Virus genome (UHGV): UHGV-0174372
Direction: 5' to 3' (one strand)
DNA: 35,240 bases
From: a virus
Below are positions 5,566 to 25,699 of the stretch, in pieces. The translations under genes were made by a program, and so were the position numbers. The number at the start of each line of letters is the position of its first letter. Position 1 is the first letter of the stretch. The notes beneath the pieces were generated by a model, which searched no databases, was not told the origin of the DNA, and saw only the letters and a list, made by a program, of their open reading frames with translations.

Positions 5566-6672
5566 ATGTTAGAAAAAACGTTTGAGACAAGCGTTGTCTC
5601 TTTCCTCTCCAGACTTCCCATGCTGTTTCGTTCACGTGCGGAGTCGATGGAGGAATTTAACTCGGTGCTCTATAACGAGCACATTACCTTAGTCGAACAA
5701 AGCCTGCTGGGTTTAGATTACCTTCCGGGAATTCTGGAGAAAATCCAAATTTTGCTGGCAGGAAACCAACTAACGGCTATCTCCCTGTTAACTGGTGTAC
5801 CGGATGTCGATATTATCGGTACACTGGATCAGGTCAGCACACGTCGTAGTGCGCTCGATAATGCAGTCCGCAGCGGTTCCCGCTTAGCAGCGCTTGCGGT
5901 CGGCGAATCTGCCCGTTATGGTTTACCGTCATACGATAAAATCGGCATTGCGGTCGGCGAATCTGCTCGTCGCGTTGCCCAAGAATCAAAAGGTTCGGTC
6001 AGTGGCGGGAAAGGTGATCCGATTAAACAGCTTTTCGATCAAGAAGGGTTGTCCAACGGGAAAATGTTCTCAGTAACATTCGAACGTGACGGTAATAAAG
6101 TCGAACTCCCAATGCGTTTACGTTTGGATGTGAAATCCTTACCGACCGAACAAATTGAAACACTGATTGCGTTCAGTGACCAGACGAAAACATTCTGGGA
6201 ACGTTGGCTGCGTGCACGCGTTGGCGCGTTGAGTTACGTAAAAGACATTGCGTTCTGTAACGACCTGGTAGAAGAATATCGTAAGAACCGTTATCGCGAT
6301 AAGTCCGGTTATTACCGTAAGATGATGGAGAAGAAGAACGGTAACTGGTTGTCTGGTCTGCTGTCTTTGGCACCGTCTATCAATAACGCTTCTTCCGTTA
6401 TGGTGGTTTCTCAAGACACCATCGACGGTTTGACCGCACAGCTAGGTGGCGAATTTGACGATTTCAATATCCGTCAGCGTGTGTTCAAAGACACCTTGAC
6501 CGTCTACTATGTTGTTGTGGACACCACCTGGAATCGTGTCACTATTTATACCCGTGGTCAGAACGGCTCTCAGGAACTCGATAAATCTGACTTTAGTAAA
6601 TCGAAGTCTGGTAGCGCCGATGTAAATAAAATCATCGAAGCGTATCGCTCTGGCGCTCAGCCAGTTCTTTAA
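5566..6672 (+). CDS. hypothetical virion protein (368 aa) with duplicated AVGESAR motif
   Basis: ATG 5566 with upstream aggaaa; contains a 19-bp in-frame direct repeat encoding AVGESAR twice, plus AQES; these are candidate prohead-protease sites. Confidence 0.8.
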   Translation: MLEKTFETSVVSFLSRLPMLFRSRAESMEEFNSVLYNEHITLVEQSLLGLDYLPGILEKIQILLAGNQLTAISLLTGVPDVDIIGTLDQVSTRRSALDNAVRSGSRLAALAVGESARYGLPSYDKIGIAVGESARRVAQESKGSVSGGKGDPIKQLFDQEGLSNGKMFSVTFERDGNKVELPMRLRLDVKSLPTEQIETLIAFSDQTKTFWERWLRARVGALSYVKDIAFCNDLVEEYRKNRYRDKSGYYRKMMEKKNGNWLSGLLSLAPSINNASSVMVVSQDTIDGLTAQLGGEFDDFNIRQRVFKDTLTVYYVVVDTTWNRVTIYTRGQNGSQELDKSDFSKSKSGSADVNKIIEAYRSGAQPVL

Positions 6673-6682
6673 GGGGTAAGGC

Positions 6683-7618
6683 ATGGCAATCCCGAATATG
6701 CTCGCTATGTTGTTGCCGAGCTTTGAAGCAACAAACTTGAAAAACCAACTCTCATCAAACTGCGATGCGATTGGTGAACAACTTTTACCGCGTTTCCAGT
6801 CTCTGCAAGAGCTGGTAGCGTCGAAAGAAGGCAAGCCGTTTAAATCGAAAACGGTGCAGGACATGTCGGATGATTTGGTTAAATACCTGCGGAATTCCGG
6901 TCTGGAAGCCAAAGGTCTCCGTAATCCTTCGATGCTGGAATACATCGTTGCCTCGATGGAAAACACGCTACAATTGCGTTCTTTCTTAGACCAATGTATT
7001 ACGCGTGACATTGGTAAAGCGTTAGTCACGTCTTCAATGACGTTTAATAAATTAACGGTGCTCAGACTGCTTGACCTGATTGACTTCTTTACAGGTTACA
7101 GTGCCACCTTACTTAACTACGTAACCGCAGAAGAAATAGCCGCCGTAGAAGGCTCGAATATTGAAGTAAAAGGCGTCGGTCCGAATGACCTTCAATACCT
7201 CAATACTCGTTCTATTTCTTACTGCATTGCTGTCCGTGTGTTGGCAACGCCGCTGAATAAACTGAAAGCGGATTATGCGGAAATTCCTGAAGCGATCTTT
7301 AACGACGAAACTTACGGTGAGTTGGCGCAACAGTTCGGTTCGAGCTCCGTTGACCCACTGGGAATGAGCAGTGTACCGTTCCCAATCTCGCTGATATTGC
7401 GCGTACGTTTGAATATCGCTGAACGGCAGATGGATAAGTACGACGAGTGTGTAGAAGCGGCGAAAGCGGCGGAACTGCGTATCTTACTTTACAAAAAGCA
7501 AGTCGCAGAAGGTAAGGGTGATGCCCACATTGAGAAACTGATTGAAATCAGTGAAAAGCATCTGATGGAACTCAAGCACAAGCGTGAGCGTCTTGAAAAG
7601 AAATACGGTTTAGCGTAA
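6683..7618 (+). CDS. hypothetical phage protein (311 aa)
   Basis: ATG 6683 preceded by aagggg at 6-nt spacing; lies 10 nt after the previous stop, so same operon. Confidence 0.8.
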   Translation: MAIPNMLAMLLPSFEATNLKNQLSSNCDAIGEQLLPRFQSLQELVASKEGKPFKSKTVQDMSDDLVKYLRNSGLEAKGLRNPSMLEYIVASMENTLQLRSFLDQCITRDIGKALVTSSMTFNKLTVLRLLDLIDFFTGYSATLLNYVTAEEIAAVEGSNIEVKGVGPNDLQYLNTRSISYCIAVRVLATPLNKLKADYAEIPEAIFNDETYGELAQQFGSSSVDPLGMSSVPFPISLILRVRLNIAERQMDKYDECVEAAKAAELRILLYKKQVAEGKGDAHIEKLIEISEKHLMELKHKRERLEKKYGLA

Positions 7619-7635
7619 ACCGTTAGGAGAGGCGA

Positions 7636-8196
7636 ATGTTTGAGCACGATAGTCCTGAATTTAATGTTGCTGTAGAGCGCATTAAATCCTACATGTCGAT
7701 TTTATCGAAAAACCCAATCGACACACACGATGACGAGGTTATTCACAAAACACTGGAAGCCGCCGCCGTTATTTTACCGTACTTTCGTCTGATGGCTGCT
7801 GATTCTTTGCAGCAAGTATTATATGACGAATATCCGCAGGTCGGATTTACCTTTAATACGTTTTATAACGAAAGTGTAGATTTCTTGCTGGATGGTAAGC
7901 GACGTAATGTGACGTTAGGGCAGTGGTCGACTTTGCTGTCGTCGTATATGAACGATGTTCGTAACACGAAGAATGTTGAACAGACGGGTGCATTAGGCTC
8001 GCGTCTATTAGCTGCTGCGTTTGGTCGCCGAGGTACTGTACGTAATATGGGCTCTGCTCACCAATCTGTTGAGTGTAGCAAACGTCTTTTATCTTATGCA
8101 GACCATGAACTGCTGGCACGCTGGATGACGCGCCCGAACGGGTTGTCCGACATGATCTCGTCGTTAGCAGTGTTTTTGAAAATCGCACGTCCCTAA
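7636..8196 (+). CDS. hypothetical phage protein (186 aa)
   Basis: ATG 7636 preceded by aggagagg; ORF ends at 8196. Confidence 0.75.
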   Translation: MFEHDSPEFNVAVERIKSYMSILSKNPIDTHDDEVIHKTLEAAAVILPYFRLMAADSLQQVLYDEYPQVGFTFNTFYNESVDFLLDGKRRNVTLGQWSTLLSSYMNDVRNTKNVEQTGALGSRLLAAAFGRRGTVRNMGSAHQSVECSKRLLSYADHELLARWMTRPNGLSDMISSLAVFLKIARP

Positions 8197-8255
8197 GGGG
8201 GCCCCTCATTCTAGGGGCGTGTAATTGGGTTATATAACCAAAGGAAATAAACGAA

Positions 8256-9527
8256 ATGGCAAATTTCGCAAAAACTCGCGCCGCTCGTGAATCGATGGAA
8301 GCGGCCGATGAAGTAATCGACGGTATCAGCAACGTTGAACCGGCAGAAGAGAACCTGGACGTCCAACTTGCGGACGTAGCATCTATCGACGGTCAGCTCG
8401 ATCAGCTGGAAACCGACGGTGAAACCCTGGCTGCCGATACCGAGCGTACTGAAGACGCTATCGAACAGGCGGAAGAAGCCGTTGCTAACGGTGAAGAAAT
8501 GCCGGAAGAAGCGGTTGCCCTGCACGAAGTGGCACAGGAATCCATCGCACGTCGTTGGTGCCTGGAACGTACTAAACTGGCTCGCGAATCCTATCGTCGT
8601 GGCCGTGGTATGACTGCTGCTGCCCAGGAAGGTTGGAAAGAAACCCTGAAAGATCTTTACGATCGTTTCATTCAGTTCTGTAAAGAAGTGATTGCGAAGA
8701 TCAAAGACCTGAAACTGAAATATTTCAATGTCGGTAAGACCGCACAGAAACGTGCGAAGAAATATCAGGAAATGCTGCGTAAGCTGGGCAAACAGAAGAA
8801 AGATGAAATCTCTGGTGGCTTTATCACCAAGCTGTCTATCGAAGGTAAATTCGATGCTGCTGGCTCTATCGCTATTGCGAAAGAAGTTACCGCCGGTAAA
8901 GCTAAAGGTTCCATCGGTGCTCTGGAAAAACAAGCTGGTGAAGCTGTGACTGCCGTTACCAAAGGTGACGATGACGCATTCAAGGCAATGCGTGGTGATC
9001 AGCCGGTAGAACTGTTTGGTAAAGCTGCTTCTAAACTGCACACTCTGCCGAACTTTGAAAAAGGCGATGCGTCTAAACTGCTGGCGCTGCCGGGCAACGC
9101 TTACATTCAGGCTGGTACTAAAGAACTGGCTGGCGGTCACAAGTTCACTGCAATCGCGTTCATGAGCACCGGCGACGCTTCTGACGATAAAGACGTGAAA
9201 ACTCCGTCTGTTTCTGAAATGGCTGGCGCTGCTTCTGCTCTGGAAGCGATCGGTAAAGGCTTCGAAGCCGTACTGAAAGATTTCCGTGCCTACGATTCTG
9301 AAATCGTGAAGCTGCAACAGGCTGCTGAGAATGCTGCTAAGGCGCTGAACAACGAAAAAGACGATAGCAAGTGGGATGGCCTGCGTAACGCACGTCAAGC
9401 TGCCGATTGGTCTGTTAAGAACTACCAGACCCTGAACCGCGCAGTTAGCTATGTTGCTAACACCGTTATTAGCGGTCTGAATGGCTACCTGGGTGCTGGT
9501 ATCGGTGCTTACGAAAAATCTAAATAA
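8256..9527 (+). CDS. high-abundance virion protein, paralog A (423 aa); candidate protease-processed internal head protein
   Basis: ATG 8256 with aaggaaa Shine-Dalgarno; strongly biased codon usage (ctg/cgt/ggt/aaa/gaa); N-terminus MANFAKTRAARES; internal AQESIARRW and ARESY; C-terminus GLNGYLGAGIGAYEKSK shared with the next gene. Confidence 0.85.
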   Translation: MANFAKTRAARESMEAADEVIDGISNVEPAEENLDVQLADVASIDGQLDQLETDGETLAADTERTEDAIEQAEEAVANGEEMPEEAVALHEVAQESIARRWCLERTKLARESYRRGRGMTAAAQEGWKETLKDLYDRFIQFCKEVIAKIKDLKLKYFNVGKTAQKRAKKYQEMLRKLGKQKKDEISGGFITKLSIEGKFDAAGSIAIAKEVTAGKAKGSIGALEKQAGEAVTAVTKGDDDAFKAMRGDQPVELFGKAASKLHTLPNFEKGDASKLLALPGNAYIQAGTKELAGGHKFTAIAFMSTGDASDDKDVKTPSVSEMAGAASALEAIGKGFEAVLKDFRAYDSEIVKLQQAAENAAKALNNEKDDSKWDGLRNARQAADWSVKNYQTLNRAVSYVANTVISGLNGYLGAGIGAYEKSK

Positions 9528-9571
9528 TCGTTTAGATTCGTAGTTCCGTACAGTTCTTGAAATAAATCATC

Positions 9572-9592
9572 AGGGGAACGTATTGTTCCCCT
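9572..9592 (+). other. GC hairpin without U-tract between paralog genes (possible attenuator or RNA processing site)
   Basis: 8-bp stem aggggaac/gttcccct with a 5-nt loop, sited in the spacer just upstream of the paralog B ribosome-binding site; no T-run follows. Confidence 0.3.
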
Positions 9593-9609
9593 TAGAGGAA
9601 AAGCTTAAA

Positions 9610-10875
9610 ATGGCGAATTTCTACAAAAACAAAATTGCTCGTGAGTCTATGGAGTCTACTTCTACTGTAGTTCCAGACGGCATCGAACTGCCAGCAGAAT
9701 CCGTAGAAGGCACTCTGGCCGATATCGAGCATGACACCAAACCGATCGAAGCTCTGGACGCTGACGCTGAACTGCTGGCAGAAGACGGTGACGAAACTGA
9801 CGCTCAGCTGGATGTTCTGGACGAAGCTCAGGCTGCTGCTGACGGTGAAGGTGCTGGCGAAGACGGTGAAGAACCGATGGACGCCGAAGAAGATATGCCG
9901 GACGACGCTGCGACTGCGCTGGACGTTGCTCAGGAATCTATCCGTTCTCGTTGGAACTTCGAACACCGTTCTTCTGTTGCTCACGAATCCTACGGTTCTC
10001 GTAACCGTCGTCAGGTTGCTCGTGAATCCCTGTGGGAAGACATCAAAGCCTTCCTGGGCCGTATTCTCGATTGGCTGAAAGAACAAGGCCGCAAACTGAA
10101 AGATCGCTGGCTGAAATTCCACAACCAGGGTAAATCTATTCAGGCACGTGCTAAGAAATACGATGAAGTTATTCGTAAGCTGGGCAAACAGAAGAAAGAT
10201 GAAATCTCTGGTGGTTTCATCAAGTCTCTGTCTATCGACGGCAAGTTCGTCGGTGATAATATTCCGAAACTGAAAGGTATCCTTAACCAGGTCTCCTCGT
10301 TCTATAGCGCTAAGATGCCTGCCATGGCCGCTAAAGCTGCTGAAGTGGTTTCCGATGTTACCAAAGGTAATGGCGTTAAAGTTGAAAAACTGAAAGCCGA
10401 CTTTACCGAACTGTCCAAACAAGACAGTCTCCAAAACTTCAAGCTCGGTAACATGGCGGTGAAAACCGAGTATGACAACGAAGGCGGCTTCAGCTCCACC
10501 TTTGTTGAAGCTGAAAACAGCGTTGAAACTAGCGTGAAAACTCCGTCTGTTGGCGAACTGGCCAAAATCAATGCTCTCTTCAACGAAGTGGGTAAACAGA
10601 TTGAGAAGAACGTTCAGGATTACCGTAAAGTCGAAAGCGCGCGGAAAACCTTTGAAGATAATATCGATAAGCTCCTGAAAGAAGTCGATAAAGTTAAGAT
10701 CGACGAAAAACCGGAACTGACCGAAGGTGTACGTGCTGCCCGTCGTTTCATCACCAGCGTTAACCAGGGTCTGTCTCTGGGTGAGAAGGTTATTGCTTCT
10801 ACTCAGAAACACCTGGCCGGTGGTCTGAATGGCTACCTGGGTGCTGGTATCGGCGCTTACGAAAAATCTAAATAA
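9610..10875 (+). CDS. high-abundance virion protein, paralog B (421 aa)
   Basis: ATG 9610 (the track start at 9583 is a TTG) with gaggaaa Shine-Dalgarno; N-terminus MANFYKNKIARES; AQESIRSRW, AHESY, ARESL; a 41-nt tract identical to paralog A (10174-10214 vs 8778-8818) and a near-identical 54-nt 3' end. Confidence 0.85.
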   Translation: MANFYKNKIARESMESTSTVVPDGIELPAESVEGTLADIEHDTKPIEALDADAELLAEDGDETDAQLDVLDEAQAAADGEGAGEDGEEPMDAEEDMPDDAATALDVAQESIRSRWNFEHRSSVAHESYGSRNRRQVARESLWEDIKAFLGRILDWLKEQGRKLKDRWLKFHNQGKSIQARAKKYDEVIRKLGKQKKDEISGGFIKSLSIDGKFVGDNIPKLKGILNQVSSFYSAKMPAMAAKAAEVVSDVTKGNGVKVEKLKADFTELSKQDSLQNFKLGNMAVKTEYDNEGGFSSTFVEAENSVETSVKTPSVGELAKINALFNEVGKQIEKNVQDYRKVESARKTFEDNIDKLLKEVDKVKIDEKPELTEGVRAARRFITSVNQGLSLGEKVIASTQKHLAGGLNGYLGAGIGAYEKSK

Positions 10876-10893
10876 TCCCTGATTGTTTAGTAA

Positions 10894-10940
10894 GAGAACC
10901 ACCCTGTAATGGGGTGGTTCTCTCTTTTCTTTTTTTTTCG
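10894..10940 (+). terminator. intrinsic terminator
   Basis: 11-bp stem gagaaccaccc/gggtggttctc followed by a long T-run (ttttctttttttttcg). Confidence 0.7.
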
Positions 10941-10950
10941 ATTAAAATAA

Positions 10951-10978
10951 TTTTCAGATATATATTACCTAGGTGAGA
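10951..10978 (+). promoter_or_regulatory. candidate phage early promoter (TATATTAC core), copy 1
   Basis: ttttcagatatatattacctaggtgaga; a 27-nt tract identical to 19206-19232, placed just after a terminator and about 50 nt upstream of the next ATG. Confidence 0.45.
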
Positions 10979-11028
10979 ATACTGTGTAATCTCTTTACGA
11001 CTTGTTTATTACGTTTAGGAGAAATATC

Positions 11029-11670
11029 ATGAGCCGCATTAATTTAACCGATTTTGTTGATGGTGTTGTGTCTATGGATAAAGGTGTCGTTACGATGGTG
11101 GCACCGAATAGTAAAGTTGTTACTTTAAATCCGGTAGAACTGATTTCTATTTCTACCTGGTTGCGCTTACTTTCTGGTAAGAAACCTAAAGACCAAGCGA
11201 AGGGTGGCTTATTAGTTGGTACACGTGAGTTTGTTTTCAAAGACATAACCCAAGATAAACTGGACAGCATTGCTAAAGAACTGAACGGCAAGCATAAAAC
11301 TCGCGACATCGGGAGTGCCGAACATGACGGTGTAACGTACCATGCATTTCTTGATAGTCACGTAGCATTGCGTGAAAAAGAAAATGGGTTGTACGAATCA
11401 GTTAGTTTCTTTCATTTAATCGCACCAACAGAAAACGAAGCTGTGTATGAAACCGTTGAAAAATCGGCGGAAGCTGTTATGGAAACGGTGTCAGAACTTA
11501 TAGAAGGGATGAAAAGAATCCCACGTGTGTTGAAAGTTACTGATGGGGCTTTCGATTGTTTTAAATTATTACCCCTAATAGCTAGTAAAGAATACGAAGA
11601 TGAGAACACCTTCGGACTATTCGAAATTAGTCTTTCGGAAGCAGTTGTTACTTTCTTTGAAGATTTATGA
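11029..11670 (+). CDS. hypothetical early protein (213 aa)
   Basis: ATG 11029 with aggag at 7-nt spacing (the track start at 11002 is a TTG); more AT-rich codon usage than the structural genes; followed by a terminator. Confidence 0.75.
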   Translation: MSRINLTDFVDGVVSMDKGVVTMVAPNSKVVTLNPVELISISTWLRLLSGKKPKDQAKGGLLVGTREFVFKDITQDKLDSIAKELNGKHKTRDIGSAEHDGVTYHAFLDSHVALREKENGLYESVSFFHLIAPTENEAVYETVEKSAEAVMETVSELIEGMKRIPRVLKVTDGAFDCFKLLPLIASKEYEDENTFGLFEISLSEAVVTFFEDL

Positions 11671-11674
11671 GATA

Positions 11675-11705
11675 AAAACCCTCTACGGAGGGTTTTATTT
11701 TTTCG
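11675..11705 (+). terminator. intrinsic terminator
   Basis: Stem aaccctc/gagggtt with tacg loop followed by ttattttttcg. Confidence 0.6.
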
Positions 11706-11723
11706 ACCTTTAGGAGAATAGAA

Positions 11724-12275
11724 ATGAACAAATTTAATATTTTAGACGCTGAAGTCGTATCTGAAACCAGTTTACAGCAGGAAATCTTTCGCATTCAGTT
11801 TGGCGATAAAACCCTTATCGTCCCACGCCCGGTAATGATTGGACTGGCTATTTTTATTAACTGTGCGCATTGTAATGGTTCTCAACTCTCCACGCTCACT
11901 TACAACAATTACGAATTCTATATTCCGGAACACCTGGAATATAATCGCTTCATTGCTTTACGCCCGTTCTACAAGTTTATGTTAGACGCAGGTTATTCTA
12001 CACTGACGAAAACGTACATTCGTGATTATTCGAAGCTGGAAACGTTCTATCGTCGTCGCGGTTATCGTGTTCCTGAGCCTATTGACGGTTTTCAAACACG
12101 CGTTGTATTACTTAAACCGCTAGAAAAAGAACTGGCTTGCTATAAACTTGATATTGAGCAGAAGTTACTGCGTGAGGATTTGTTGAATTTATACAATCAG
12201 CTTTCAGTTGTACCGAAAGCCACAGTAGAAAACATTCTACCTGATTACGGAATTAGACAATATCAGGAAGGTTAA
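11724..12275 (+). CDS. hypothetical early protein (183 aa)
   Basis: ATG 11724 preceded by taggagaa. Confidence 0.75.
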   Translation: MNKFNILDAEVVSETSLQQEIFRIQFGDKTLIVPRPVMIGLAIFINCAHCNGSQLSTLTYNNYEFYIPEHLEYNRFIALRPFYKFMLDAGYSTLTKTYIRDYSKLETFYRRRGYRVPEPIDGFQTRVVLLKPLEKELACYKLDIEQKLLREDLLNLYNQLSVVPKATVENILPDYGIRQYQEG

Positions 12276-12276
12276 A

Positions 12277-13401: not shown

Positions 13402-13414
13402 GTAGGATAAACGT

Positions 13415-13450
13415 AAAAGGGGACTTCGGTTCCCTTTTATTTTTTTTTCA
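13415..13450 (+). terminator. intrinsic terminator
   Basis: Stem aaaaggggac/gttccctttt (one G-U pair) with ttcg loop, followed by a T-run of at least nine. Confidence 0.7.
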
Positions 13451-13490
13451 TTTCGCGCCTGTGATATGACTATAACGAAGGAACAAGCCA

Positions 13491-16350: not shown

Positions 16351-16351
16351 C

Positions 16352-16891
16352 GTGGCTGAAAAACGTAGCGCAGCATTTATGCTGTTTCACAAGTGGGTGG
16401 GATGGCGTGTCCCTGAATGGACGACGATTTCAACGTACATGTCTCAGGAACATGGATTGTTCTTACCGGAAGACGAGAAAAAAGCACGCGCGATACTGCT
16501 TAATAAAAAGACTGTATACATGCGACCTTTCGAAGTTGCGGTTTATGCAGAATCGGGCGCGGCGTTAGACGTCCACGACCCACATGACGGGATCATCGTG
16601 TACGGGTATATCATGGAACACTTAGCTGATTGGCTAAATTACATGCAGACCCCACACCTGACAACACGTAAAGTCCCTATGGAGGGCTTGCGTCAGTTTA
16701 ATGCGTTAGCGCGTAAACTGTTCCCGGTAGCGAACCGTTACGGTTACTTTAAGAAACCTGAAGTAACAATGGCGGTTTCCGTACAAGCGTTATTTGGCGA
16801 AGTCCGGTTGGAAACAGAACGGCATCAGTTCAACGATACGATTATGCACCGTATTGAACAGATATACCGTAGACGTGGAGGAATTCTGTAA
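16352..16891 (+). CDS. hypothetical phage protein (about 179 aa); GTG start inferred
   Basis: GTG 16352 lies 6 nt after gaggga and 1 nt after the upstream stop; the first in-frame ATG (16379) has no Shine-Dalgarno. The track ORF is open from 16250. Confidence 0.55.
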   Translation: MAEKRSAAFMLFHKWVGWRVPEWTTISTYMSQEHGLFLPEDEKKARAILLNKKTVYMRPFEVAVYAESGAALDVHDPHDGIIVYGYIMEHLADWLNYMQTPHLTTRKVPMEGLRQFNALARKLFPVANRYGYFKKPEVTMAVSVQALFGEVRLETERHQFNDTIMHRIEQIYRRRGGIL

Positions 16892-18210
16892 TGTCGTTTG
16901 GTCGGTTACAGAACATAGCAAACGTGCACATTGCACAAGCGGCGGGATTACCGGCCATCGACTACGTACCCCTTATCACGGTTCGTGGGGTGACGATTGA
17001 CGTTTACAAAACCATGTCGATAATCCATGCCAGTAATTTCGCTCAGGATTTAACGACCATCACGCACCTCAGTGTGGTGATTCCACTGAGCCAGCAACGT
17101 ATTCTTACGTCGTCGGCAGAAGGGGATTTATCAGTTAAAATCCTGATGCGGACAATGAACAAGAAAACCGTAGCGCAACTGAACTACCGAGGAATTGTGG
17201 TTAACAACCACGATCCTGATATGGAATCACCTACAATGTTTTTGGGTGAATCTGACCAAAAAGGGTTGGGTGTGGTAACGTTGGAACTGATGGATGAATC
17301 GATGTGGTTCCTTCGTTGTCGTCAGGTAGGTGGGATTTACCACGAAACAGATGGATTAAGTGTCGTTCGTGCATTACTTGCTGACACATTACCTACCGGG
17401 GATGCACCAGAAGGTCAGTTGGTTGGTGTGGAATACGAGGAAGAAGAACAACAGCCTTATCGTGACATTTTGATTCCCGATTCGCAAAGTTTTCTTTCGG
17501 TTTTCGATTTCATTCAGAACCGCTACGGTGTGTATAGTCAAGGATTAGGTGTCTTCCTGTATAAACACCGTTGGCATATCTTTCAACCGTGGGATTCTAA
17601 GAAATTCTCTACGGCAAAAAAGAAACTGGTGGTGATTAACCTTCCCAGAGAGAAAGTTGCCTATTTAGATAAAACGTGTCACATTGCAGGTGACGTCATT
17701 TATCTGATTTGTGGTGGCGATGTTCACACCTTCGAAGACAAAGACGCCCTCGCGTTAAATCAGGGAACGGGTTATCGCGTGGGTTCAATCCGTGCCTTAG
17801 ATGGACGTGCAAGTTCTTTCTCTCCAGGCGACGTTTCAGCAACGACGTCAGATTCGTTTGTTTCGGCAGCAGACCCTACACAGTACCCCGGTGGTGTTGT
17901 TAATGCACCTATTGATCCAAACGAGCACTTCAGCGACACGGATAAACCTCGTCGTTCTAAGTTGGCTGCCGCCAGAGGGACACTGACCGCAACGACCTGG
18001 AACCGTTCAGCGTACGGTTTATTGCAGCCGGGTATGGCAGTAAAATATCTGTATGCGAATAATTACGGTGTATACACTCGTTATGGGACGTTGGTTGGTG
18101 AAGTTTTCCAAGCTGCCGTTGACGGTGGTTCGATGGCGTCCCCACAATTTAATACCATTAGTCAATTGACGTTGTGGTTGACTAATGAAAAATTTACAAC
18201 CGCTACGTAA
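16891..18210 (+). CDS. hypothetical phage protein (439 aa), possible virion protein
   Basis: ATG overlaps the upstream TAA (TAATG); contains LGES and SAEG motifs. Confidence 0.8.
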   Translation: MSFGRLQNIANVHIAQAAGLPAIDYVPLITVRGVTIDVYKTMSIIHASNFAQDLTTITHLSVVIPLSQQRILTSSAEGDLSVKILMRTMNKKTVAQLNYRGIVVNNHDPDMESPTMFLGESDQKGLGVVTLELMDESMWFLRCRQVGGIYHETDGLSVVRALLADTLPTGDAPEGQLVGVEYEEEEQQPYRDILIPDSQSFLSVFDFIQNRYGVYSQGLGVFLYKHRWHIFQPWDSKKFSTAKKKLVVINLPREKVAYLDKTCHIAGDVIYLICGGDVHTFEDKDALALNQGTGYRVGSIRALDGRASSFSPGDVSATTSDSFVSAADPTQYPGGVVNAPIDPNEHFSDTDKPRRSKLAAARGTLTATTWNRSAYGLLQPGMAVKYLYANNYGVYTRYGTLVGEVFQAAVDGGSMASPQFNTISQLTLWLTNEKFTTAT

Positions 18211-18242
18211 ATTATGTCGTCCGTAACCTAAAGGATTTGTTA

Positions 18243-19043: not shown

Positions 19044-19049
19044 AAACTT

Positions 19050-19090
19050 CCCGTTACCTCTGTGGGTAACGGGAATACCTTTTATTTATC
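19050..19090 (+). terminator. probable intrinsic terminator
   Basis: 9-bp stem cccgttacc/ggtaacggg followed by T-rich aataccttttatttat. Confidence 0.55.
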
Positions 19091-19205
19091 CCTAAACGCC
19101 ACACAGAAGTCATTTCTCCATTAAGACGACTAATTACCCTTCAAAAAGAAAATTGCGTCAGAATGCGTTTTAGAGCGTTCTAGAGGGTATATGGATTCAA
19201 AAAGA

Positions 19206-19232
19206 TTTCAGATATATATTACCTAGGTGAGA
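19206..19232 (+). promoter_or_regulatory. candidate phage early promoter (TATATTAC core), copy 2
   Basis: tttcagatatatattacctaggtgaga, identical to 10952-10978; 47 nt upstream of ATG 19279. Confidence 0.45.
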
Positions 19233-19278
19233 GTTTACGTAATACTCATTTATCGAATACCTAATTAGGAGTTATATC

Positions 19279-19392
19279 ATGATTTCTGTAAAACACAAAA
19301 AAGCTATCTTCGCTGTTGTTATCGCTGTTGTTCTGGGTTGCCTGTACCTGGATATCGACAAAGGCTACGACACTTGCATCGACAACGGTAAT
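19279..19392 (+). CDS. small membrane peptide (37 aa), not in ORF track
   Basis: aggag lies 7 nt upstream of ATG 19279. Hand translation gives MISVKHKKAIFAVVIAVVLGCLYLDIDKGYDTCIRQR: a basic N-terminus then a 16-residue hydrophobic helix. Flanked by the promoter-like element and a terminator. Confidence 0.4.
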
Positions 19393-19430
19393 TCCGTTGC
19401 ACAGTGCACTGGTCGTGGTTAATGTATAAG

Positions 19431-19460
19431 GCACCTTCGGGTGCCCTTAATTTTTTTATT
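19431..19460 (+). terminator. intrinsic terminator
   Basis: Stem ggcacc/ggtgcc with a tight loop, followed by cttaatttttttatt. Confidence 0.6.
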
Positions 19461-19476
19461 AATTGGAGCATAAAAG

Positions 19477-20292
19477 ATGATTACTATTAAAGATTATTTT
19501 CCGCGTGGGCTGAGCAATGAAAACTTCGTTCCAACTGAAGACATTGCCATCGTTGCAGAGTCTAACGATAAGTCTTTTAAACTCTACTTGAGTACGGCAG
19601 CAGGAAAATCCACTCTTATTCTTCGCGAACCTGAAGTGATAAGCATCTGCTCGTTTGGGGGCGGTGTAGAAGGAACGATTAATTGGTTGAAATCCAGAAT
19701 GCATCGTTTACTTATCGTGAACACCGATCCTACGATTCGATTACAGCAATTGAAATCGTTGAATGAAGTTATCGTCGGATTATTGGAACACGAAACGTTC
19801 GGTAATGCTGAGATTGCGGAAGCGATTAAATCTGTAGAACTAATCGAGTGGAGTGATATCGAATACGAACGTGCTGCGTTATTCGCAATGCATGGTGACG
19901 ATAATCCCGTTGTGTTTGCACAAACGTTGGATAATGTTACGGTAACGGCGCGCGTATTGTTTGGTTTACAGCGTGTTGAGTTTGAACTGAAACACGTTTA
20001 TGTAAGTAATACTCCAGAGATGGTGGAAACGTTGACTCGTGCGTTCGCTTACCCATTAGACGGAGAATGGGAACAGCAGATTAATGAAGCGTTAGGCGCA
20101 ATGCTGTTCTTAGCAGGCACACTAAGGAAAGAAGAGAAATTAGAAGGTCGTGTTTATCCAGAATACGATTTTGTTTGTGAAGAATGTGGAACACAGTACC
20201 AAATACGTGTTCCTTTAACCGGCCTGACAATCCCGAGAGCCAACGTGGAATGTAAGGAATGTGGCCATGTTCAATACGTAGCGACTAAATAA
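19477..20292 (+). CDS. hypothetical protein (271 aa) with C-terminal CxxC...CxxC zinc-ribbon-like motif
   Basis: ATG 19477 with GGAG at 8-nt spacing; the C-terminus reads ...FVCEECGTQYQIRVPLTGLTIPRANVECKECGHVQYVATK. Confidence 0.8.
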   Translation: MITIKDYFPRGLSNENFVPTEDIAIVAESNDKSFKLYLSTAAGKSTLILREPEVISICSFGGGVEGTINWLKSRMHRLLIVNTDPTIRLQQLKSLNEVIVGLLEHETFGNAEIAEAIKSVELIEWSDIEYERAALFAMHGDDNPVVFAQTLDNVTVTARVLFGLQRVEFELKHVYVSNTPEMVETLTRAFAYPLDGEWEQQINEALGAMLFLAGTLRKEEKLEGRVYPEYDFVCEECGTQYQIRVPLTGLTIPRANVECKECGHVQYVATK

Positions 20293-20298
20293 AAGCAA

Positions 20299-20340
20299 CC
20301 CCTAATCCTTTTCGGGATTAGGGGTACACTTTATTTATTT
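20299..20340 (+). terminator. intrinsic terminator
   Basis: 10-bp stem cccctaatcc/gggattagggg with ttttc loop, followed by tacactttatttattttcg. Confidence 0.7.
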
Positions 20341-20403
20341 TCGCAAATTCAACAACTTGGATTAAATAAAAGGCTTAAAGCCTCTAACAATCTTCGAGTA
20401 CAG

Positions 20404-20433
20404 ATCTTCACCGAAAGGAGAAGTAACTACTAA
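20404..20433 (+). pseudogene. truncated remnant of a small-ORF paralog (3' end only, no start codon)
   Basis: cag atc ttc acc gaa agg aga agt aac tac taa is about 80% identical to the 3' end of the small ORF at 20590-20763 (..QIFTEKRSEHY*); the same frame is open back to 20293 but holds no ATG, GTG or TTG. Confidence 0.3.
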
Positions 20434-20469
20434 ATAAAATAAAGGGGTGTGACAGCACCCCTTATCAAA

Positions 20470-20556
20470 GCTTTAACTTTTCGAAAAGAGAAGTTAAAGC
20501 AGGGTACGCTGGTGCTACAGCGTACCCTTTACAACACCACTACGTTTCCGTAGTGG
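20470..20556 (+). other. cluster of three consecutive perfect hairpins (candidate structured RNA or regulatory element)
   Basis: gctttaactt/aagttaaagc (10 bp), agggtacgctg/cagcgtaccct (11 bp) and ccactacg/cgtagtgg (8 bp) back to back, ending about 30 nt before ATG 20590. Confidence 0.35.
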
Positions 20557-20589
20557 ATTTCTTTAATCACCCTACAAAGAGGGCTTACC

Positions 20590-20763
20590 ATGAACAATGG
20601 TTACTACTTTACCGACAAAATGCTTGCAGAACAGAGTGCAGCAAAGACCAATTTACAGCAACGTATCTACAAGTATAGTCAGCTCGGCATGGATAAACGG
20701 TTAAAACCGTCTACCAACCGTTTCACGCAGATATTCACTGAAAAGAGGAGTGAACACTACTAA
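20590..20763 (+). CDS. small hypothetical protein (57 aa), ORF-a; not in ORF track
   Basis: ATG 20590 with aagaggg about 6 nt upstream. Translation MNNGYYFTDKMLAEQSAAKTNLQQRIYKYSQLGMDKRLKPSTNRFTQIFTEKRSEHY shares the pattern QQRIYKYSQLG / NQRMDEYVRLG with the next small ORF. Confidence 0.45.
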   Translation: MNNGYYFTDKMLAEQSAAKTNLQQRIYKYSQLGMDKRLKPSTNRFTQIFTEKRSEHY

Positions 20764-20843
20764 CAAATAAAGGAGAGGCGTGTCAGCGCCTCTCCTCCTC
20801 GTACAGTAACCTGCCGAGATGGTGGTCGTAGGTATAATAAAAA

Positions 20844-20958
20844 AGGGGGTGGTGAAGCACCCCTTTTCATAGCTTTAACTTTTCCAAAGAGAAGTTAAAG
20901 CAGTAGAGACTGGCGAAACAGTCTCTACTGTACGGTGTCAACACATAAAGTTGTTGAC
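20844..20958 (+). other. second hairpin cluster (variant copy of 20443-20556)
   Basis: ggggtg/cacccc hairpin with T-run, then gctttaactt/aagttaaagc, gtagagactg/cagtctctac (10 bp) and gtcaaca/tgttgac (7 bp), all before ATG 20990. Confidence 0.35.
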
Positions 20959-20989
20959 GTTTTTTACAACATTACGAAAGGTAATGAAA

Positions 20990-21151
20990 ATGAACGATTA
21001 TCAAATACAGCTGTTCAATACCGCGATGCGAAATCGTGAAAAACAAATTCAGTTTAACCAACGCATGGACGAATATGTTCGTCTCGGCCTCGTTGCGGCA
21101 CCGAAAACGGTTAACAACCACAATATTCACCAACCACCTGTAAGGAGGTAA
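20990..21151 (+). CDS. small hypothetical protein (53 aa), ORF-b, diverged paralog of ORF-a
   Basis: ATG 20990 with gaaagg at 8-nt spacing (the track start at 20951 is a TTG). Translation MNDYQIQLFNTAMRNREKQIQFNQRMDEYVRLGLVAAPKTVNNHNIHQPPVRR. Confidence 0.45.
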   Translation: MNDYQIQLFNTAMRNREKQIQFNQRMDEYVRLGLVAAPKTVNNHNIHQPPVRR

Positions 21152-21291
21152 GTTACTAACTAATAAAGGGGGTGTCGCCACACCCCCTACTTAGTTCAGT
21201 AGTTATCTTCCGTTCATAATTAATAAGCCTTCTGTTTTTTTGCTTTTCGGGACGCATAAGGGGTCGTAGGGGGAGCCGAAGCTCCCCAGAC

Positions 21292-22854
21292 TCAAAAGAG
21301 TTCGTCACCCATACCGCCTGTAAAGACGTTAATCGACGATGCAGTCACTGTTTCTTCTTTATCACAATCCCATGGCAAAATGCCAACATCACGGAAAGGT
21401 ATTACAGTATAATGATAAGCTTCTTTGGTATCGATAATGGTACGGTGTTTACCGCGTTGTACTTCTAAATAGCTGTGACCGTTGACGACACGTTTGTTAA
21501 AATACATCTCACCGTCAGCTTCGTTGTCTAAGCTAGAGCAGTTGTCGTAAAGACCACGACCAGGTAAGCTCTTACAGAAACTTGCTGGGTCGAGTGCTTT
21601 TAATTTTTTGCCTTCTGGTGAGATTTGGTGTGGTGCTAATAGGAAACCACGATTACGTACCACTTGGATGTTTCGCGCGATACGATAAATTTCTTTAATG
21701 TCACTACCCGCAATACCGTTACCGTGCCCTGCTTTGCTGATAGTACCGAAATAGTCTCCGCGTATTCCAGCTACATGATAACCTCGACGTTTTAAATCTA
21801 AAATCAAATCATTCAAATAGTGAATTTTAAAATCGGAGTTTGTGTGTTTTTGGAAAATATACTCCCAACCGTTTGCCCGCATTTTACTACAGAGGTAATC
21901 TGACATTTGTGCATTGTGTAGCGCTTTTTCTTCGTCAGTTGCCGTTTCAGGTGCAACCATTACCGGAGCTGTACCTTCAAAGTGTCCGTAAAGTGCTTGA
22001 TACGCGTAAGCCAAGTTAACATCTAATTCGTTTTCTAAACTTAAATCCAGAATAACCGGTTGTAAGTCACCTTTAACATTCGCCATCACCTTTTCTGGGG
22101 TGTTGAATACAGGAATGCTAATAGAGAGCAATAAACTGAATAATGACTTACAGTTAAAGGGTAGTGCAGGCATTAGCCAGAGTTCTTCGGTGATCCCTTT
22201 GTTACAGCCAAGCATTTGGTTAATTGCTTTCCACCCCGTACGCAACCCGTTCCCTGCCGCTTTCTTACTGATAGAGTCGAATACATGTACGAAGGGTGCT
22301 TTATTGTCAGTAATCAATTCCCCTACCAGAGAAGGAATCTTATTATGAGAGCGTTCACTGAACGTGGATAAGGTATCCTTAAGGTCGTTGAGCGCCGTTT
22401 GTAAATCAACACGCGTTTCAGTGCCGTTCAGTGCGCCTAACGTACGACCCAATTTTTGTTTCAGTTGTACGCCTTGAATAGCTTGACGTAACTGAAAGTA
22501 GTATTGTGCTACTTGGCGATTAAGATGCTCGATGCGTGCTTCTGGTTCTTCTGGAATATCATCTTCCAGGAATTTGGTAATCGTATCGTATAGAGGACGT
22601 ATTTGCGTAGTGGCCAGTTTCAAACGTTTCATGACGTTTGTGTGGTCGTAAGGCATACCGCCGTCTATGATGGATGTGATGATATCCTTGATTTCGACGA
22701 GGGCGGCACGTTCGTCACCTTCTTCTGCGTAATCAGGAAGCTTAGCCTCTAACAGCACTTTTCTTATGATGTCGTGGTCCTTTTCAGGATCGGTCAGAAG
22801 ACTTTCAGCGTATAATGTGGCTAAGGCGGTTATCAACATCATTTTGTTATTCAT
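21292..22854 (-). CDS. hypothetical phage protein (520 aa)
   Basis: Long ORF with aagga 8 nt upstream of the ATG on the minus strand; a GC hairpin (21269-21287) abuts the stop; Gly-rich segment GDYFGTISKAGHGNGIAGSD. No motif recognised. Confidence 0.8.
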   Translation of the reverse strand: MNNKMMLITALATLYAESLLTDPEKDHDIIRKVLLEAKLPDYAEEGDERAALVEIKDIITSIIDGGMPYDHTNVMKRLKLATTQIRPLYDTITKFLEDDIPEEPEARIEHLNRQVAQYYFQLRQAIQGVQLKQKLGRTLGALNGTETRVDLQTALNDLKDTLSTFSERSHNKIPSLVGELITDNKAPFVHVFDSISKKAAGNGLRTGWKAINQMLGCNKGITEELWLMPALPFNCKSLFSLLLSISIPVFNTPEKVMANVKGDLQPVILDLSLENELDVNLAYAYQALYGHFEGTAPVMVAPETATDEEKALHNAQMSDYLCSKMRANGWEYIFQKHTNSDFKIHYLNDLILDLKRRGYHVAGIRGDYFGTISKAGHGNGIAGSDIKEIYRIARNIQVVRNRGFLLAPHQISPEGKKLKALDPASFCKSLPGRGLYDNCSSLDNEADGEMYFNKRVVNGHSYLEVQRGKHRTIIDTKEAYHYTVIPFRDVGILPWDCDKEETVTASSINVFTGGMGDELF

Positions 22855-22867
22855 GGAGCATCCTTAA

Positions 22868-23392
22868 ATGCAAATTCGTTTTAGTCCACCGTGGGAAGTT
22901 CAACCTAACATAGATAAAGGCGCTGCCGTTAAAAGTATAGAATTGCTCCAGGCAGGGTTCTTTAACTGGTTATATGACTGTCCGAATGGTTTCAGTTCTA
23001 TTATCTTACCTGAAGTAAGTCGTTCTGCTATTTATAAAGCACTGATGGCTCCGCCTGTGCTTCCAGGTAAATATTATGATCAGGTGTTACGTCTGGTCGA
23101 ATCAGGCGAAAAGGTTTCCCTTGACGATTTATATGGGGAAACAATTCCTTGTCGCGTACGTTGGGTGTTTACTCAACGTGGTGATACGATTGTGGCGTCA
23201 TTTGCAGAAGCGAAGTCCGGTTCGGGTTTTTCTTCGGGTGAAGACCACGCTGCGAAAAAGATGTTCTGCGCAGAACTTTTTAAATATATGCGTACCAAGA
23301 CTCGCGTCGTGGATGACTGCTTCAGTACCTCAACGCAGTTTGCCGCTAACGAAGTGCTGACGCAATTATACGCATGTCATTTATCTCATTAA
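22868..23392 (+). CDS. hypothetical phage protein (174 aa)
   Basis: ATG 22868 with GGAG 9 nt upstream; divergent from the 520-aa gene across a 13-bp spacer. Confidence 0.7.
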   Translation: MQIRFSPPWEVQPNIDKGAAVKSIELLQAGFFNWLYDCPNGFSSIILPEVSRSAIYKALMAPPVLPGKYYDQVLRLVESGEKVSLDDLYGETIPCRVRWVFTQRGDTIVASFAEAKSGSGFSSGEDHAAKKMFCAELFKYMRTKTRVVDDCFSTSTQFAANEVLTQLYACHLSH

Positions 23393-23404
23393 GGTATTAA
23401 ACAA

Positions 23405-25699
23405 ATGAAAGATACCCGAATCTCTAATCTGGAGAAACTCGTACAAGCTGGTAACTCGCTGGTACAAAGCGTCATTAGTAACAACAGTGCTGGCGAAATG
23501 TGGAACACCATCGTTGCTGGTGAGTCTGTACGTAGCAACACGAAAGTTTTTGGTACCCTGCGTGACGATGCTGCACAGCACTACGCAAACGCGTTTGCTG
23601 GCGGTAAGAAAATGTCCCACGCTGCGGAAGTTGCTTCTGCAATGATTCTGGGTGCTGCTGGTCACGGTATGGACCTGCAAGAAAAAGTAGCGCAAGAATA
23701 CGCTAAGCCAGAATTCCATAGCCGTTTTAACCTGGACGTTGCGATTCCTGGTTCCCAAGCTGGTAACGGCGACTGGGGCAAAGAGCGTATGGTTGTTGCT
23801 CAGGAATACTACACCAACAAAGATTACGACAAAAACCTGGGTCTGACCTGGACGCTGAACGTACGTGCTCTGGAAACTCAGTCTCGTTTCGCTGAGACTC
23901 TGTTCCCGACCATCACCGTTGACACCAACGATGTTGGTATTACCGTACGTACCAAAGTGACCACCGTTTCTCGTGGTGTCATGCACGCGTTACTGACCAA
24001 AGACGTTGTTGAAGATCATCGTCGTAACCTGCACGAAGCGCTGACTGACCACACCGTTCTTCAGGACGAAGCGATCAACATCGTTCCTTACGTAATGGAA
24101 ACCGGTGAAAATGCTGAATACTTCGTAAGCGAAGAACTGGTACCGAACGAATCTGTTCGCCTGGGTCGTGTACCTCCGTACCCGACTAACTACCTGAGCT
24201 TTGCTAAAGACACTCTGAACCTGTTCCAGCTGTCTGCGCATCCGGGTATCGTTCAGGAAGGTTACGACGAAACTGATGAAATCGCACCGGGTTGTGCTCT
24301 GGGCAGCCTGCTGATTTCTGTACGTAAACCGACCGAAGAAGCGAAAGCAGGTAAATTCATTAAACTGCACGTTCGTGACATGCAGTTCGCAACCTTCCAG
24401 CGTCCTGCTGAAGGTGATGGCCGTGAGCTGGTACTGCAATTCCGTCGTACTGCGTTCTCTCTGAATGCGAAAACCACCGACTGGAAAGGCGAAGCTATTC
24501 CGGCACTGAAATCACTGGAACAGAACTCCTACACCCTGCGTTATGTGATCACCATCAACATGTCTCTGTTCACTACCGGTCAGTTCGGTGGTAAAGTTGA
24601 CATCGCTGGTCACAAACTGGAAATCGAAGGTCTGTACGACGCTACCGGTAACAAAGTTGATACCAAATCTGGTACCGGCAAAGTTATCCTGGACGGTCTG
24701 AAACTTGAACTGATGGGCTGGCGCTTCGATGGTACTCGTACCAACGAAAACCGTCGTACCCAGGGTCTGCTGCTTGACCCAATCTGGGAACAAGAAAACT
24801 ACAAACTGCAATACGGTTCTCCGATCCTGACCAAGTCTCCGGTTGGCGTTGAATACGACGATACCGAACGTCTGGACGACCTGATTTCCGCAGTTAACAT
24901 CCGTAACGAACAGCTGGCTATCACTCAGACGCTGTCTTACACCGAAGCGGTACGTAACGCTGCTGCAAGCATGATCACTCCGTGGGACAAACCGGCCATT
25001 CGTGGTCTGGGCCGTCACTGGGTTGCTCCGTGGTTCAAAGAGTCTGACTACAACGTTGATGAAGTTGTACAGTCCCTGGATACCAAAGATGCACTGATCA
25101 ACGCTCGTCAGGGCCTGGTACAGCGTATCGGTAATCAGGTAACTCAGGCTATCCAGGAATCTCGCTTCATTCCTGCGCTGCGTCTGTACACTGCCGATCC
25201 GGACATTCTGCCGAAAGTTGTTATTGCAACTGACGAACCGACTGCATCTATGCTGCTGCTGGTACAGGGCGACCAACGTCTGCTGGGCGATCGCTACGAA
25301 TACGAAGTGATCACCACCAACGATGACCGCTGGCGTATCTACAACGCAGCTGACGGTTCCTGGACTCGTCGTCTGCAATGGTTCCTGAAAGTTCCGACTG
25401 CGGACGATGGTTCCTACAACGTGCTGAACTGGGGTAACCACTTCTGGTCTCCGATCATGGTTACCAATATCAACATTCAGCGTAACGGTTCTACCTCTAA
25501 AGAGCTGGCCGTACAGCCGCGCAACGCGCACATCTGCCACTGCCCGATCACCGGTCTGATCTGGGTTAAAGGCATCACCAAACTGGTTGAAGAAAAACTG
25601 GCTTACAATGTTTCTGTTGAACAGAACGGTCAGAAACAAACCGAAGGTGGTGTAGCAGGTAACGTTGCTGGCGAAGGCAAAGCTGCTGCTGGTAAGTAA
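23405..25699 (+). CDS. candidate major capsid protein (764 aa); product assignment tentative
   Basis: The most strongly codon-optimised ORF in the window; size is in the range I recall for phiKZ-type major capsid proteins; N-terminal SAGE and AGES motifs; strong terminator downstream. Confidence 0.8.
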   Translation: MKDTRISNLEKLVQAGNSLVQSVISNNSAGEMWNTIVAGESVRSNTKVFGTLRDDAAQHYANAFAGGKKMSHAAEVASAMILGAAGHGMDLQEKVAQEYAKPEFHSRFNLDVAIPGSQAGNGDWGKERMVVAQEYYTNKDYDKNLGLTWTLNVRALETQSRFAETLFPTITVDTNDVGITVRTKVTTVSRGVMHALLTKDVVEDHRRNLHEALTDHTVLQDEAINIVPYVMETGENAEYFVSEELVPNESVRLGRVPPYPTNYLSFAKDTLNLFQLSAHPGIVQEGYDETDEIAPGCALGSLLISVRKPTEEAKAGKFIKLHVRDMQFATFQRPAEGDGRELVLQFRRTAFSLNAKTTDWKGEAIPALKSLEQNSYTLRYVITINMSLFTTGQFGGKVDIAGHKLEIEGLYDATGNKVDTKSGTGKVILDGLKLELMGWRFDGTRTNENRRTQGLLLDPIWEQENYKLQYGSPILTKSPVGVEYDDTERLDDLISAVNIRNEQLAITQTLSYTEAVRNAAASMITPWDKPAIRGLGRHWVAPWFKESDYNVDEVVQSLDTKDALINARQGLVQRIGNQVTQAIQESRFIPALRLYTADPDILPKVVIATDEPTASMLLLVQGDQRLLGDRYEYEVITTNDDRWRIYNAADGSWTRRLQWFLKVPTADDGSYNVLNWGNHFWSPIMVTNINIQRNGSTSKELAVQPRNAHICHCPITGLIWVKGITKLVEEKLAYNVSVEQNGQKQTEGGVAGNVAGEGKAAAGK

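Follow-up and report, generated by a model that had tools for sequence, protein, structure and literature searches.

Why should short motifs of the type A-x-E-S recur near the N-termini of several presumptive virion proteins encoded by one stretch of phage DNA? The question is raised by UHGV virus genome UHGV-0174372, a 35,240-nucleotide (35.2-kb) sequence that is referred to in its entirety as the window, and that is a segment of an uncultured giant myovirus related to Salmonella phage SPN3US. An initial annotation had listed ARES, AQES, AHES, VGES, AGES and LGES in proteins encoded between positions 5566 and 25699, and had compared them with the S/A/G-x-E specificity of prohead proteases from phiKZ-like phages (A-x-E in SPN3US). 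Every listed string is present in the sequence. The motifs are very probably recognition sites of the phage's own Peptidase_S80 prohead protease, an orthologue of SPN3US gp245 that is related to T4 gp21. We favor this explanation because of homology to mapped cleavage sites, enrichment of the motif, its restriction to propeptides, its conservation with a free P2 position, and a protease gene in a sibling genome.

Megablast placed the window among SPN3US-group Salmonella and Erwinia phages, at ~77% nucleotide identity over approximately half of 5566-25699, and gene order matches SPN3US gp47 through gp81 across the window. Protein identity to SPN3US is 82% for gp50, 68% for gp53, 61.5% for gp54, 77% for gp75 and 71% for gp81. 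Contigs from 46 blocks of public assemblies, some of them scaffolds of ~224-225 kb, encode exactly the major capsid protein (MCP) of the window, and the source phage is therefore common and widespread, though uncultured. The proteins in question are listed below under the names of their SPN3US orthologues; lengths are in amino acids (aa), motif numbers are those of the Glu, and a slash marks the bond that follows it.

5566..6672, + strand: gp50-like head protein precursor, 368 aa; predicted propeptide 1-140 and mature part 141-368 (25.8 kDa); AVGE-114/S, AVGE-132/S and VAQE-140/S
8256..9527, + strand: gp53-like internal head (ejection) protein precursor, paralogue 1, 423 aa; predicted propeptide 1-125 and mature part 126-423 (32.0 kDa); ARE-12/S, AQE-95/S and ARE-111/S
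9610..10875, + strand: gp54-like internal head (ejection) protein precursor, paralogue 2, 421 aa; predicted propeptide 1-139 and mature part 140-421 (31.3 kDa); ARE-12/S, AQE-109/S, AHE-126/S and ARE-139/S
16891..18210, + strand: gp64-like protein, 439 aa; LGE-120/S
23405..25699, + strand: gp75-like MCP precursor, 764 aa; predicted propeptide 1-134 and mature part 135-764 (70.6 kDa); VAGE-40/S
31115..33832, - strand: portal precursor, 905 aa, orthologous to the SPN3US portal gp81 (PMC5694885); predicted propeptide 1-249 and mature part 250-905 (72.5 kDa)

The prohead protease of SPN3US, gp245, recognizes A-X-E and cuts behind its Glu, with Val favored at P4 and Ser at P1' (PMC5694885; PMC10052503). 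Fourteen sites in nine SPN3US proteins have been mapped by semi-tryptic or chymotryptic peptides (PMC10052503), and propeptides stay intact in amber mutants of gp245 (PMC7411985). Nine of the sites mapped by mass spectrometry (MS; PMC10052503, Table 2) are in genes shared with the window, and every one of them aligns to A-x-E there. The gp50-, gp53-, gp54-, gp75- and gp81-like proteins are thus orthologues of proteins shown by MS to be substrates, with A-X-E at each mapped position. Conservation was assessed in alignments with eight annotated relatives from five genera (SPN3US, SPAsTU, pEa_SNUABM_29, Asesino, Huxley, Caitlin, Wellington and EarlPhillipIV), so that nine genomes denotes the window plus these eight; the MCP sites were also followed in 17 distinct sequences. 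The nine sites are the following.

5977..5985, + strand: gp50-like A-Q-E-140 (VAQE/S), predicted maturation cleavage; aligns with the MS-mapped SPN3US VATE/S
8283..8291, + strand: gp53-like A-R-E-12/S; homologous to SPN3US ARE-12; ARES in 9/9 genomes
8532..8540, + strand: gp53-like A-Q-E-95/S; homologous to SPN3US AQE-95; A-x-E-S in 9/9 genomes
8622..8630, + strand: gp53-like A-Q-E-125/G (AAQE), predicted maturation cleavage; homologous to SPN3US AQE-125; A-x-E in 9/9 genomes
9979..9987, + strand: gp54-like A-H-E-126/S; homologous to SPN3US AQE-124; VA-x-ES in 9/9 genomes
10018..10026, + strand: gp54-like A-R-E-139/S, predicted maturation cleavage; homologous to SPN3US ARE-137; VARES in 8/9 genomes and AVRES in EarlPhillipIV
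23798..23806, + strand: MCP A-Q-E-134/Y (VAQE), predicted maturation cleavage; homologous to SPN3US ATE-130; [AG]-x-E/YY in 17/17 sequences
33350..33358, - strand: portal A-T-E-161/S; homologous to SPN3US ATE-161; [AG]-x-E-S in 9/9 genomes
33086..33094, - strand: portal A-H-E-249/N, predicted maturation cleavage; homologous to SPN3US AQE-254; A-x-E in 9/9 genomes

Could the recurrence instead be a by-product of Ala/Glu/Ser-rich, acidic, helical N-termini and of the gp53/gp54 paralogy, with no selection on the motif itself? The propeptides of the gp53- and gp54-like proteins are strongly acidic (net charge -19 and -27, respectively), and seven of the ten A-x-E-S motifs fall in these two paralogues, at four homologous positions. 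For the counts, the substrate set (orthologues of gp50, 53, 54, 75 and 81) was fixed a priori from SPN3US proteomics and not from motif counts. Whole-protein shuffles of these five gave an expectation of 1.3 A-x-E-S motifs against 10 observed (z 7.5), and VA-x-E occurred 10 times against 1.2 expected. The other 22 proteins of the window contained none (2.1 expected). The N-terminal propeptides, with 27% of the substrate-protein residues, contain all 10 motifs, and the mature parts hold none against 0.71 expected. When shuffling was confined to each propeptide, as a control for local composition, the expectation was 0.68, and a count of 10 was not attained in any of 5000 shuffles. With the paralogue gp54 left out, the propeptides still had six motifs against 0.44 expected. 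Moreover, A/G-x-E strings without Ser in the acidic tracts (AADE-19, AGE-84) are poorly conserved, as opposed to 92% for A-x-E-S. Both kinds of shuffle, the removal of the paralogue and the conservation control reject an origin by chance or composition, which we consider scarcely credible.

The A-x-E-S frequency thus lies well above composition, as the initial annotation had anticipated, and only part of its broader pattern, [A/G]-x-E-S, held. A-x-E-S is the enriched part. VGES and LGES do not belong to the pattern, as their Gly is at P2 and not at P3, and the x-G-E-S class to which they belong is not enriched (5 observed against 2.8 expected, P = 0.15).

Comparison across genera tells the same sites apart from fortuitous ones. 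At the mapped sites, [AG]-x-E is retained in 8-9 of the nine genomes, except at the gp50 site, where VA-x-ES is kept in 6/8 relatives. Propeptide A-x-E-S sites had a mean retention of 92% and were fully conserved in 7/10 cases. By contrast, mean retention as [AG]-x-E was 28% for A-x-E in non-substrate proteins (1/18 fully conserved) and 36% for A-x-E in the mature parts of substrates (1/13 fully conserved). P2 varies freely at the conserved sites: it is H, Q or R at gp54-126, Q, T, A or R at gp50-140 and MCP-134, and H, Q, R or T at portal-249, and its entropy (0.85 bits) exceeds the propeptide background (0.75). The pooled logo has V at P4 (69%), A (87%) or G (10%) at P3, E at P1 (99%) and S at P1' (78%); there is some circularity in the low entropy at P3 and P1, as the sites were pre-selected for conservation, but none in the free P2 or in the preferences at P4 and P1'. 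The logo equals the published one for gp245 (PMC10052503), in which A-X-E is preceded by V at P4 and followed by S at P1'. Together with the alignment of all nine mapped sites, this bears out the proposal that the motifs are prohead protease sites of the phiKZ/SPN3US type.

Six further sites are as conserved as the mapped ones, and have no reported cleavage in SPN3US. Three of them are paralogous to a mapped site in the sister protein of the gp53/gp54 pair.

8580..8588, + strand: gp53-like A-R-E-111/S, candidate; ARES in 9/9 genomes; paralogous to mapped gp54 AQE-124
9637..9645, + strand: gp54-like A-R-E-12/S, candidate; ARES in 9/9 genomes; paralogous to mapped gp53 ARE-12
9928..9936, + strand: gp54-like A-Q-E-109/S, candidate; VAQES in 9/9 genomes; paralogous to mapped gp53 AQE-95
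23516..23524, + strand: MCP A-G-E-40/S, internal propeptide candidate and not a maturation site; x-E-S in 17/17 distinct relatives
23690..23698, + strand: MCP A-Q-E-98/Y (VAQE), internal propeptide candidate; A-x-E in 17/17 relatives
33254..33262, - strand: portal G-V-E-193/S, candidate; VG-[VIL]-ES in 9/9 genomes

Two additional motifs in the gp50-like protein differ from these in having Val at P3, and so do not fit A-x-E.

5899..5907, + strand: gp50-like V-G-E-114 (AVGE/S), non-canonical candidate site 1; Glu kept in 8/8 relatives
5953..5961, + strand: gp50-like V-G-E-132 (AVGE/S), non-canonical candidate site 2; AVGES in nearly all relatives

It could be that only the nine mapped sites are cut, and that the unmapped motifs are kept for a role other than cleavage, such as capsid targeting, docking of scaffold or protease, or propeptide folding. 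This alternative covers both gp50 AVGES motifs, MCP VAGE-40/S and VAQE-98, portal VGVE-193/S, gp53 ARE-111 and gp54 AQE-109, none of which is among the 14 sites mapped by MS in SPN3US. It also draws on the N-terminal MANF..ARES, which is identical in gp53 and gp54 and resembles the capsid-targeting sequences of T4, as the SPN3US authors note, and on the GES of gp50, which is invariant at P2 as well, something that a pure A-x-E rule does not require. The SPN3US authors, however, describe internal propeptide sites as under-detected and state that propeptides hold further conforming motifs (PMC10052503). The unmapped sites share the logo of the mapped ones at P4, P3, P1 and P1', and gp53 E-111 and gp54 E-109 are paralogous to the mapped gp54 AQE-124 and gp53 AQE-95, respectively. 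Targeting and cleavage are, moreover, not mutually exclusive, because ARE-12 serves as both. We therefore regard an exclusively non-cleavage role as unlikely, though it is a more serious contender than composition.

The gp50 AVGES pair deserves separate treatment. These motifs are not among the reported SPN3US cleavages (PMC10052503). Their GES core is nearly invariant among relatives. At site 1, P3 can be V, I, M or A; the A variant yields a canonical AAGES and occurs in three lineages, the Asesino-like record L064, L070 and EarlPhillipIV. Site 2 also reads AAGES in L070. At the position of the MS-mapped gp50 site, L070 has KAVGE/S where others have VA-x-E/S, and a sequence from IMG/VR 3300011741 has AVGE/S for VATE/S. 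Likewise, the gp54 maturation site VARE/S reads AVRE/S in EarlPhillipIV, and site 40 of the MCP alternates between VAGES and AVGES, the latter in SPN3US itself. These swaps at homologous cleavage positions suggest that the protease makes no distinction between VA and AV at P4-P3. In Erskinevirus (phiEaH2, Asesino) and in Huxley, gp50 lacks the canonical third site, has an Asn-rich insertion instead, and retains only the xGES pair. It is conceivable, and in our judgment slightly more doubtful than probable, that the protease takes Ala at either P3 or P4 (VA-x-E/S or AV-x-E/S), and that the gp50 pair and the SPN3US MCP AVGES-40 are real cuts that escaped detection. Cleavage of the two gp50 AVGES sites in the window is proposed just as tentatively; alternatively, they may be a conserved docking or targeting element.

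Numbering of the SPN3US gp50 site required reconciliation. The residue that the papers, counting from Met19, call ATE-127 is E-145 of the GenBank protein (AEP83883.1; positions 5908-7026 of record L001). Cleavage at GenBank residue 127 was rejected, as that residue is Gly and the sole A-x-E is at E-145. The published precursor mass of 39.4 kDa fits numbering from Met19 (PMC5694885), and the published fragments of 15.8 and 25.6 kDa fit a cut at 145 and not at 127. The 2023 SPN3US table pairs the 41.5-kDa mass of full-length gp50 with the residue number based on Met19.

The initial annotation had also expected the motifs followed by Ser to predict the mature N-termini, and here it was mistaken. 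The MCP is predicted to be matured after VAQE-134/Y and not after AGES-40, and gp53 after AAQE-125/G; AGES-40, ARE-12, AQE-95 and AQE-109 are internal propeptide sites, not maturation sites. In SPN3US, the mature N-terminus after AQE-125 of gp53 is GWKETLK and that after ARE-137 of gp54 is SLWDDIK.

The 764-aa protein itself, initially a candidate capsid protein, can be assigned as an MCP of the phiKZ type: a precomputed hit to PF25620 (PhiKZ_MCP) is on record for the exact protein, it is 77-81% identical to the MCPs of Asesino, phiEaH2 and SPN3US, and tblastn matched it to MCPs in 227 phage records, among them that of phiKZ (gp120). Alignments with more distant phiKZ-like MCPs begin only at about residues 114-159, and the gap that this leaves at the N-terminus fits a lineage-specific propeptide. 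Site E-40 takes the forms VAGES, VARES, VGRES or AVGES (the last in SPN3US and Huxley) and has not been mapped by MS. At E-98 (23690-23701), P1' is Tyr only in the clade of the window (the window and records L019 and L020) and Ser in all other relatives, SPN3US among them. The last 20-30 residues of the MCP (25610-25699; …GGVAGNVAGEGKAAAGK, Gly/Ala-rich) are unmatched in relatives, alignments ending at 736-746. The three sites of the portal (33086-33358, - strand) lie outside the range covered by the initial annotation. The portal C-terminus (31115-31330, - strand) is a long Asp/Glu/Gly-rich acidic tail (GGGSDFGGGSEDDGGLGGDEDLGGDDMGGDEDLDMSDDETTETD…).

The two paralogues are internal head proteins of the phiKZ-like kind. 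The gp53- and gp54-like proteins score 243.6 and 195.1 bits, respectively, against PF12699 (phiKZ_IP; gathering cutoff 27), belong to PHROG 2497 (internal head protein), and correspond to SPN3US paralogue family A. The N-terminus MANF...ARES is common to both. A start of the gp54-like gene at TTG 9583 was considered and rejected; the true start is ATG 9610 (MANFYKNK).

The LGES of the gp64-like protein was the one listed motif that fell away as a cleavage site.

17242..17250, + strand: L-G-E-120/S in the 439-aa gp64-like protein, chance match; Glu kept in 4/9 genomes; LSQS in SPN3US

That it is a genuine site, and gp64 an extra substrate in this phage, might be argued from the LGES/MGES string in the window, Asesino, Caitlin and Wellington. 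Against this, SPN3US, SPAsTU, pEa_SNUABM_29, Huxley and EarlPhillipIV have Gln in place of the Glu (LSQS/SGQS), P3 is Leu, and residue 120 lies in a well-conserved region and not in a divergent propeptide. SPN3US gp64 acts with gp61 and gp62 in head-tail joining, and its knockout gives DNA-full heads, which places its action on DNA-filled heads after proteolysis (PMC7411985). The gp62-like protein of the window matches the head-tail joining families PF24214 and PF24215. A search of the PMC10052503 supplement turned up nothing on gp64, gp62 or gp50-52. We hold a functional LGES site to be highly improbable.

Overlooked substrates were also sought among the remaining proteins. Among the other 22, only KAAE-264 of gp51 retains [AG]-x-E in every relative; it has a C-terminal location, lacks Ser at P1' and was set aside as unconvincing. 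VAVE-14 at the N-terminus of the gp52-like protein was dismissed for incomplete conservation.

Where, then, is the protease? Its gene is absent from the 35.2-kb window, and in SPN3US it lies ~150 kb from this region. A sibling of the window is the IMG/VR contig 3300029126_000001 (225 kb): the two share 99.2% nucleotide identity along 4.3 kb surrounding the MCP gene, and their MCP and gp50 proteins are identical. The contig carries a 267-aa Peptidase_S80 (PF20034) that is 81% identical to gp245. This protease keeps the autocleavage site VAQE-203/S and the downstream ATE-234/S and AQE-246/Y, and these three sites are conserved in 17/17 of the SPN3US-like proteases examined. As evidence, the contig speaks for a sibling strain and does not extend to the very molecule from which the window derives. 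Exact look-ups of two representative proteins (P0005, P0003), in search of the protease, returned contigs from samples other than those with the window's MCP; protease and MCP genes were then found together on one IMG/VR contig.

By analogy with SPN3US, the precursors would co-assemble into the prohead, where the S80 protease would activate itself by removing its own C-terminal tail. It would then cut after Glu in [V/A]-[A/G]-x-E, usually before Ser, inside the assembled prohead. The long N-terminal propeptides would thereby be removed, from the MCP after E-134, the portal after E-249, gp53 after E-125, gp54 after E-139 and gp50 after E-140, and the upstream motifs would split them into pieces of 12-161 residues that leave the shell. 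Exit of the propeptides would permit expansion and DNA packaging, and the mature gp53- and gp54-like proteins would remain inside as ejection proteins.

We infer both cleavage in this phage and use of the unmapped conserved sites, and several points besides the partial circularity of the logo count against doing so. The whole argument rests on homology to SPN3US; the protease gene is outside the window and was found only on the near-identical sibling contig; gp53 E-111, gp54 E-12 and E-109, MCP E-40 and E-98, portal E-193 and the two gp50 AVGES sites have never been seen cleaved in SPN3US; and AVGES has Val, not Ala or Gly, at P3.

The likeness to SPN3US extends over gene order, 62-82% protein identity, nine sites kept in position and motif, a logo with V at P4 and S at P1', and propeptide lengths (window/SPN3US: gp53 125/125, gp54 139/137, MCP 134/130, portal 249/254 and gp50 140/145); the sibling-genome protease resembles gp245 down to its autocleavage site. 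The two phages differ in that the window MCP is at most 81% identical to that of any phage in the searched collection, in the P2 residues at most sites (AHE for AQE, AQE for ATE), and in the Tyr at P1' of MCP E-98. Furthermore, cleavage in SPN3US has been mapped experimentally, whereas in the phage of the window it is predicted from the sequence.

The phiKZ protease gp175 (S/A/G-X-E) and that of 201phi2-1 (S/A/G/T-X-E) belong to the same family and also cut after Glu, in homologous substrates (PF12699 internal head proteins, PhiKZ_MCP) and with long propeptides on portal and MCP. Gly at P3, as in phiKZ, also occurs here, in portal VGVE-193/S and in the MCP VG-x-E of Wellington and EarlPhillipIV. 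However, phiKZ is far more distant (MCP ~24% identical, aligning only from about residue 155), cleaves ~19 head proteins as against nine in SPN3US, and accepts Ser at P3, which was not seen at the conserved sites of the window group. In T4, gp21 likewise cuts after Glu, removes short N-terminal leaders from internal or ejected proteins (IPI-III, Alt) and removes the MCP propeptide before expansion. The T4 propeptides are much shorter (~10-65 residues), its portal is not processed, and gp21 prefers Leu or Ile at P3.

The initial annotation had taken 5566-25699 to be a head-morphogenesis module. The range turned out to be a mosaic instead, with evidence for head proteins restricted to gp50, gp52 (PhiKZ_gp91 vertex-binding-like), gp53, gp54 and the MCP, alongside a dihydrofolate reductase (DHFR) gene (PF00186), a DnaB-like helicase gene (PF20307), the head-tail joining genes gp61/62/64, and ~8 genes without known function. 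Some further features of the window were noted.

1-1236, + strand: open frame truncated by the left end of the window, encoding the C-terminal portion of the gp47 orthologue
4241-5539, - strand: gp49-like virion structural protein, matching PF23971 (putative phage tail tube protein) at 584 bits
20300-21290: ~1 kb between the gp70-like gene and the helicase gene, with very short open reading frames only (42-57 aa called in sibling contigs)
26901-28676, + strand: gp77-like protein without a Pfam hit
29100-29300: Gln/Pro/Ala-rich low-complexity linker of the gp78-like protein (…QPQGNFGQPAQQPAQQPVQQAQPKP…)

The protease substrates of SPN3US include gp47 (AVE-75, ALE-111); in its orthologue here, the propeptide sites would fall just upstream of the window. 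In SPN3US the tail tube is assigned to gp255, unlike the PF23971 match of the gp49-like protein. The content of 20300-21290 differs among contigs that are otherwise 97-98% identical. The gp77-like protein is probably a non-virion RNA polymerase subunit, since its orthologues in Asesino, Caitlin and Wellington are labelled as a putative RNA polymerase beta subunit or a polymerase.

The mechanism, motif, substrates and site positions have already been published for SPN3US, and the understanding of giant-phage head maturation is unchanged by our result; what the window adds is an uncultured relative and a comparative refinement. Five head-protein precursors can be annotated with confidence in a widespread uncultured giant phage, and the cross-genus comparison lengthens the SPN3US site list by six conserved candidates. 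The same comparison points to a possible loosening of the P4/P3 rule which, if true, would make the specificity of the protease broader than the published A-X-E.

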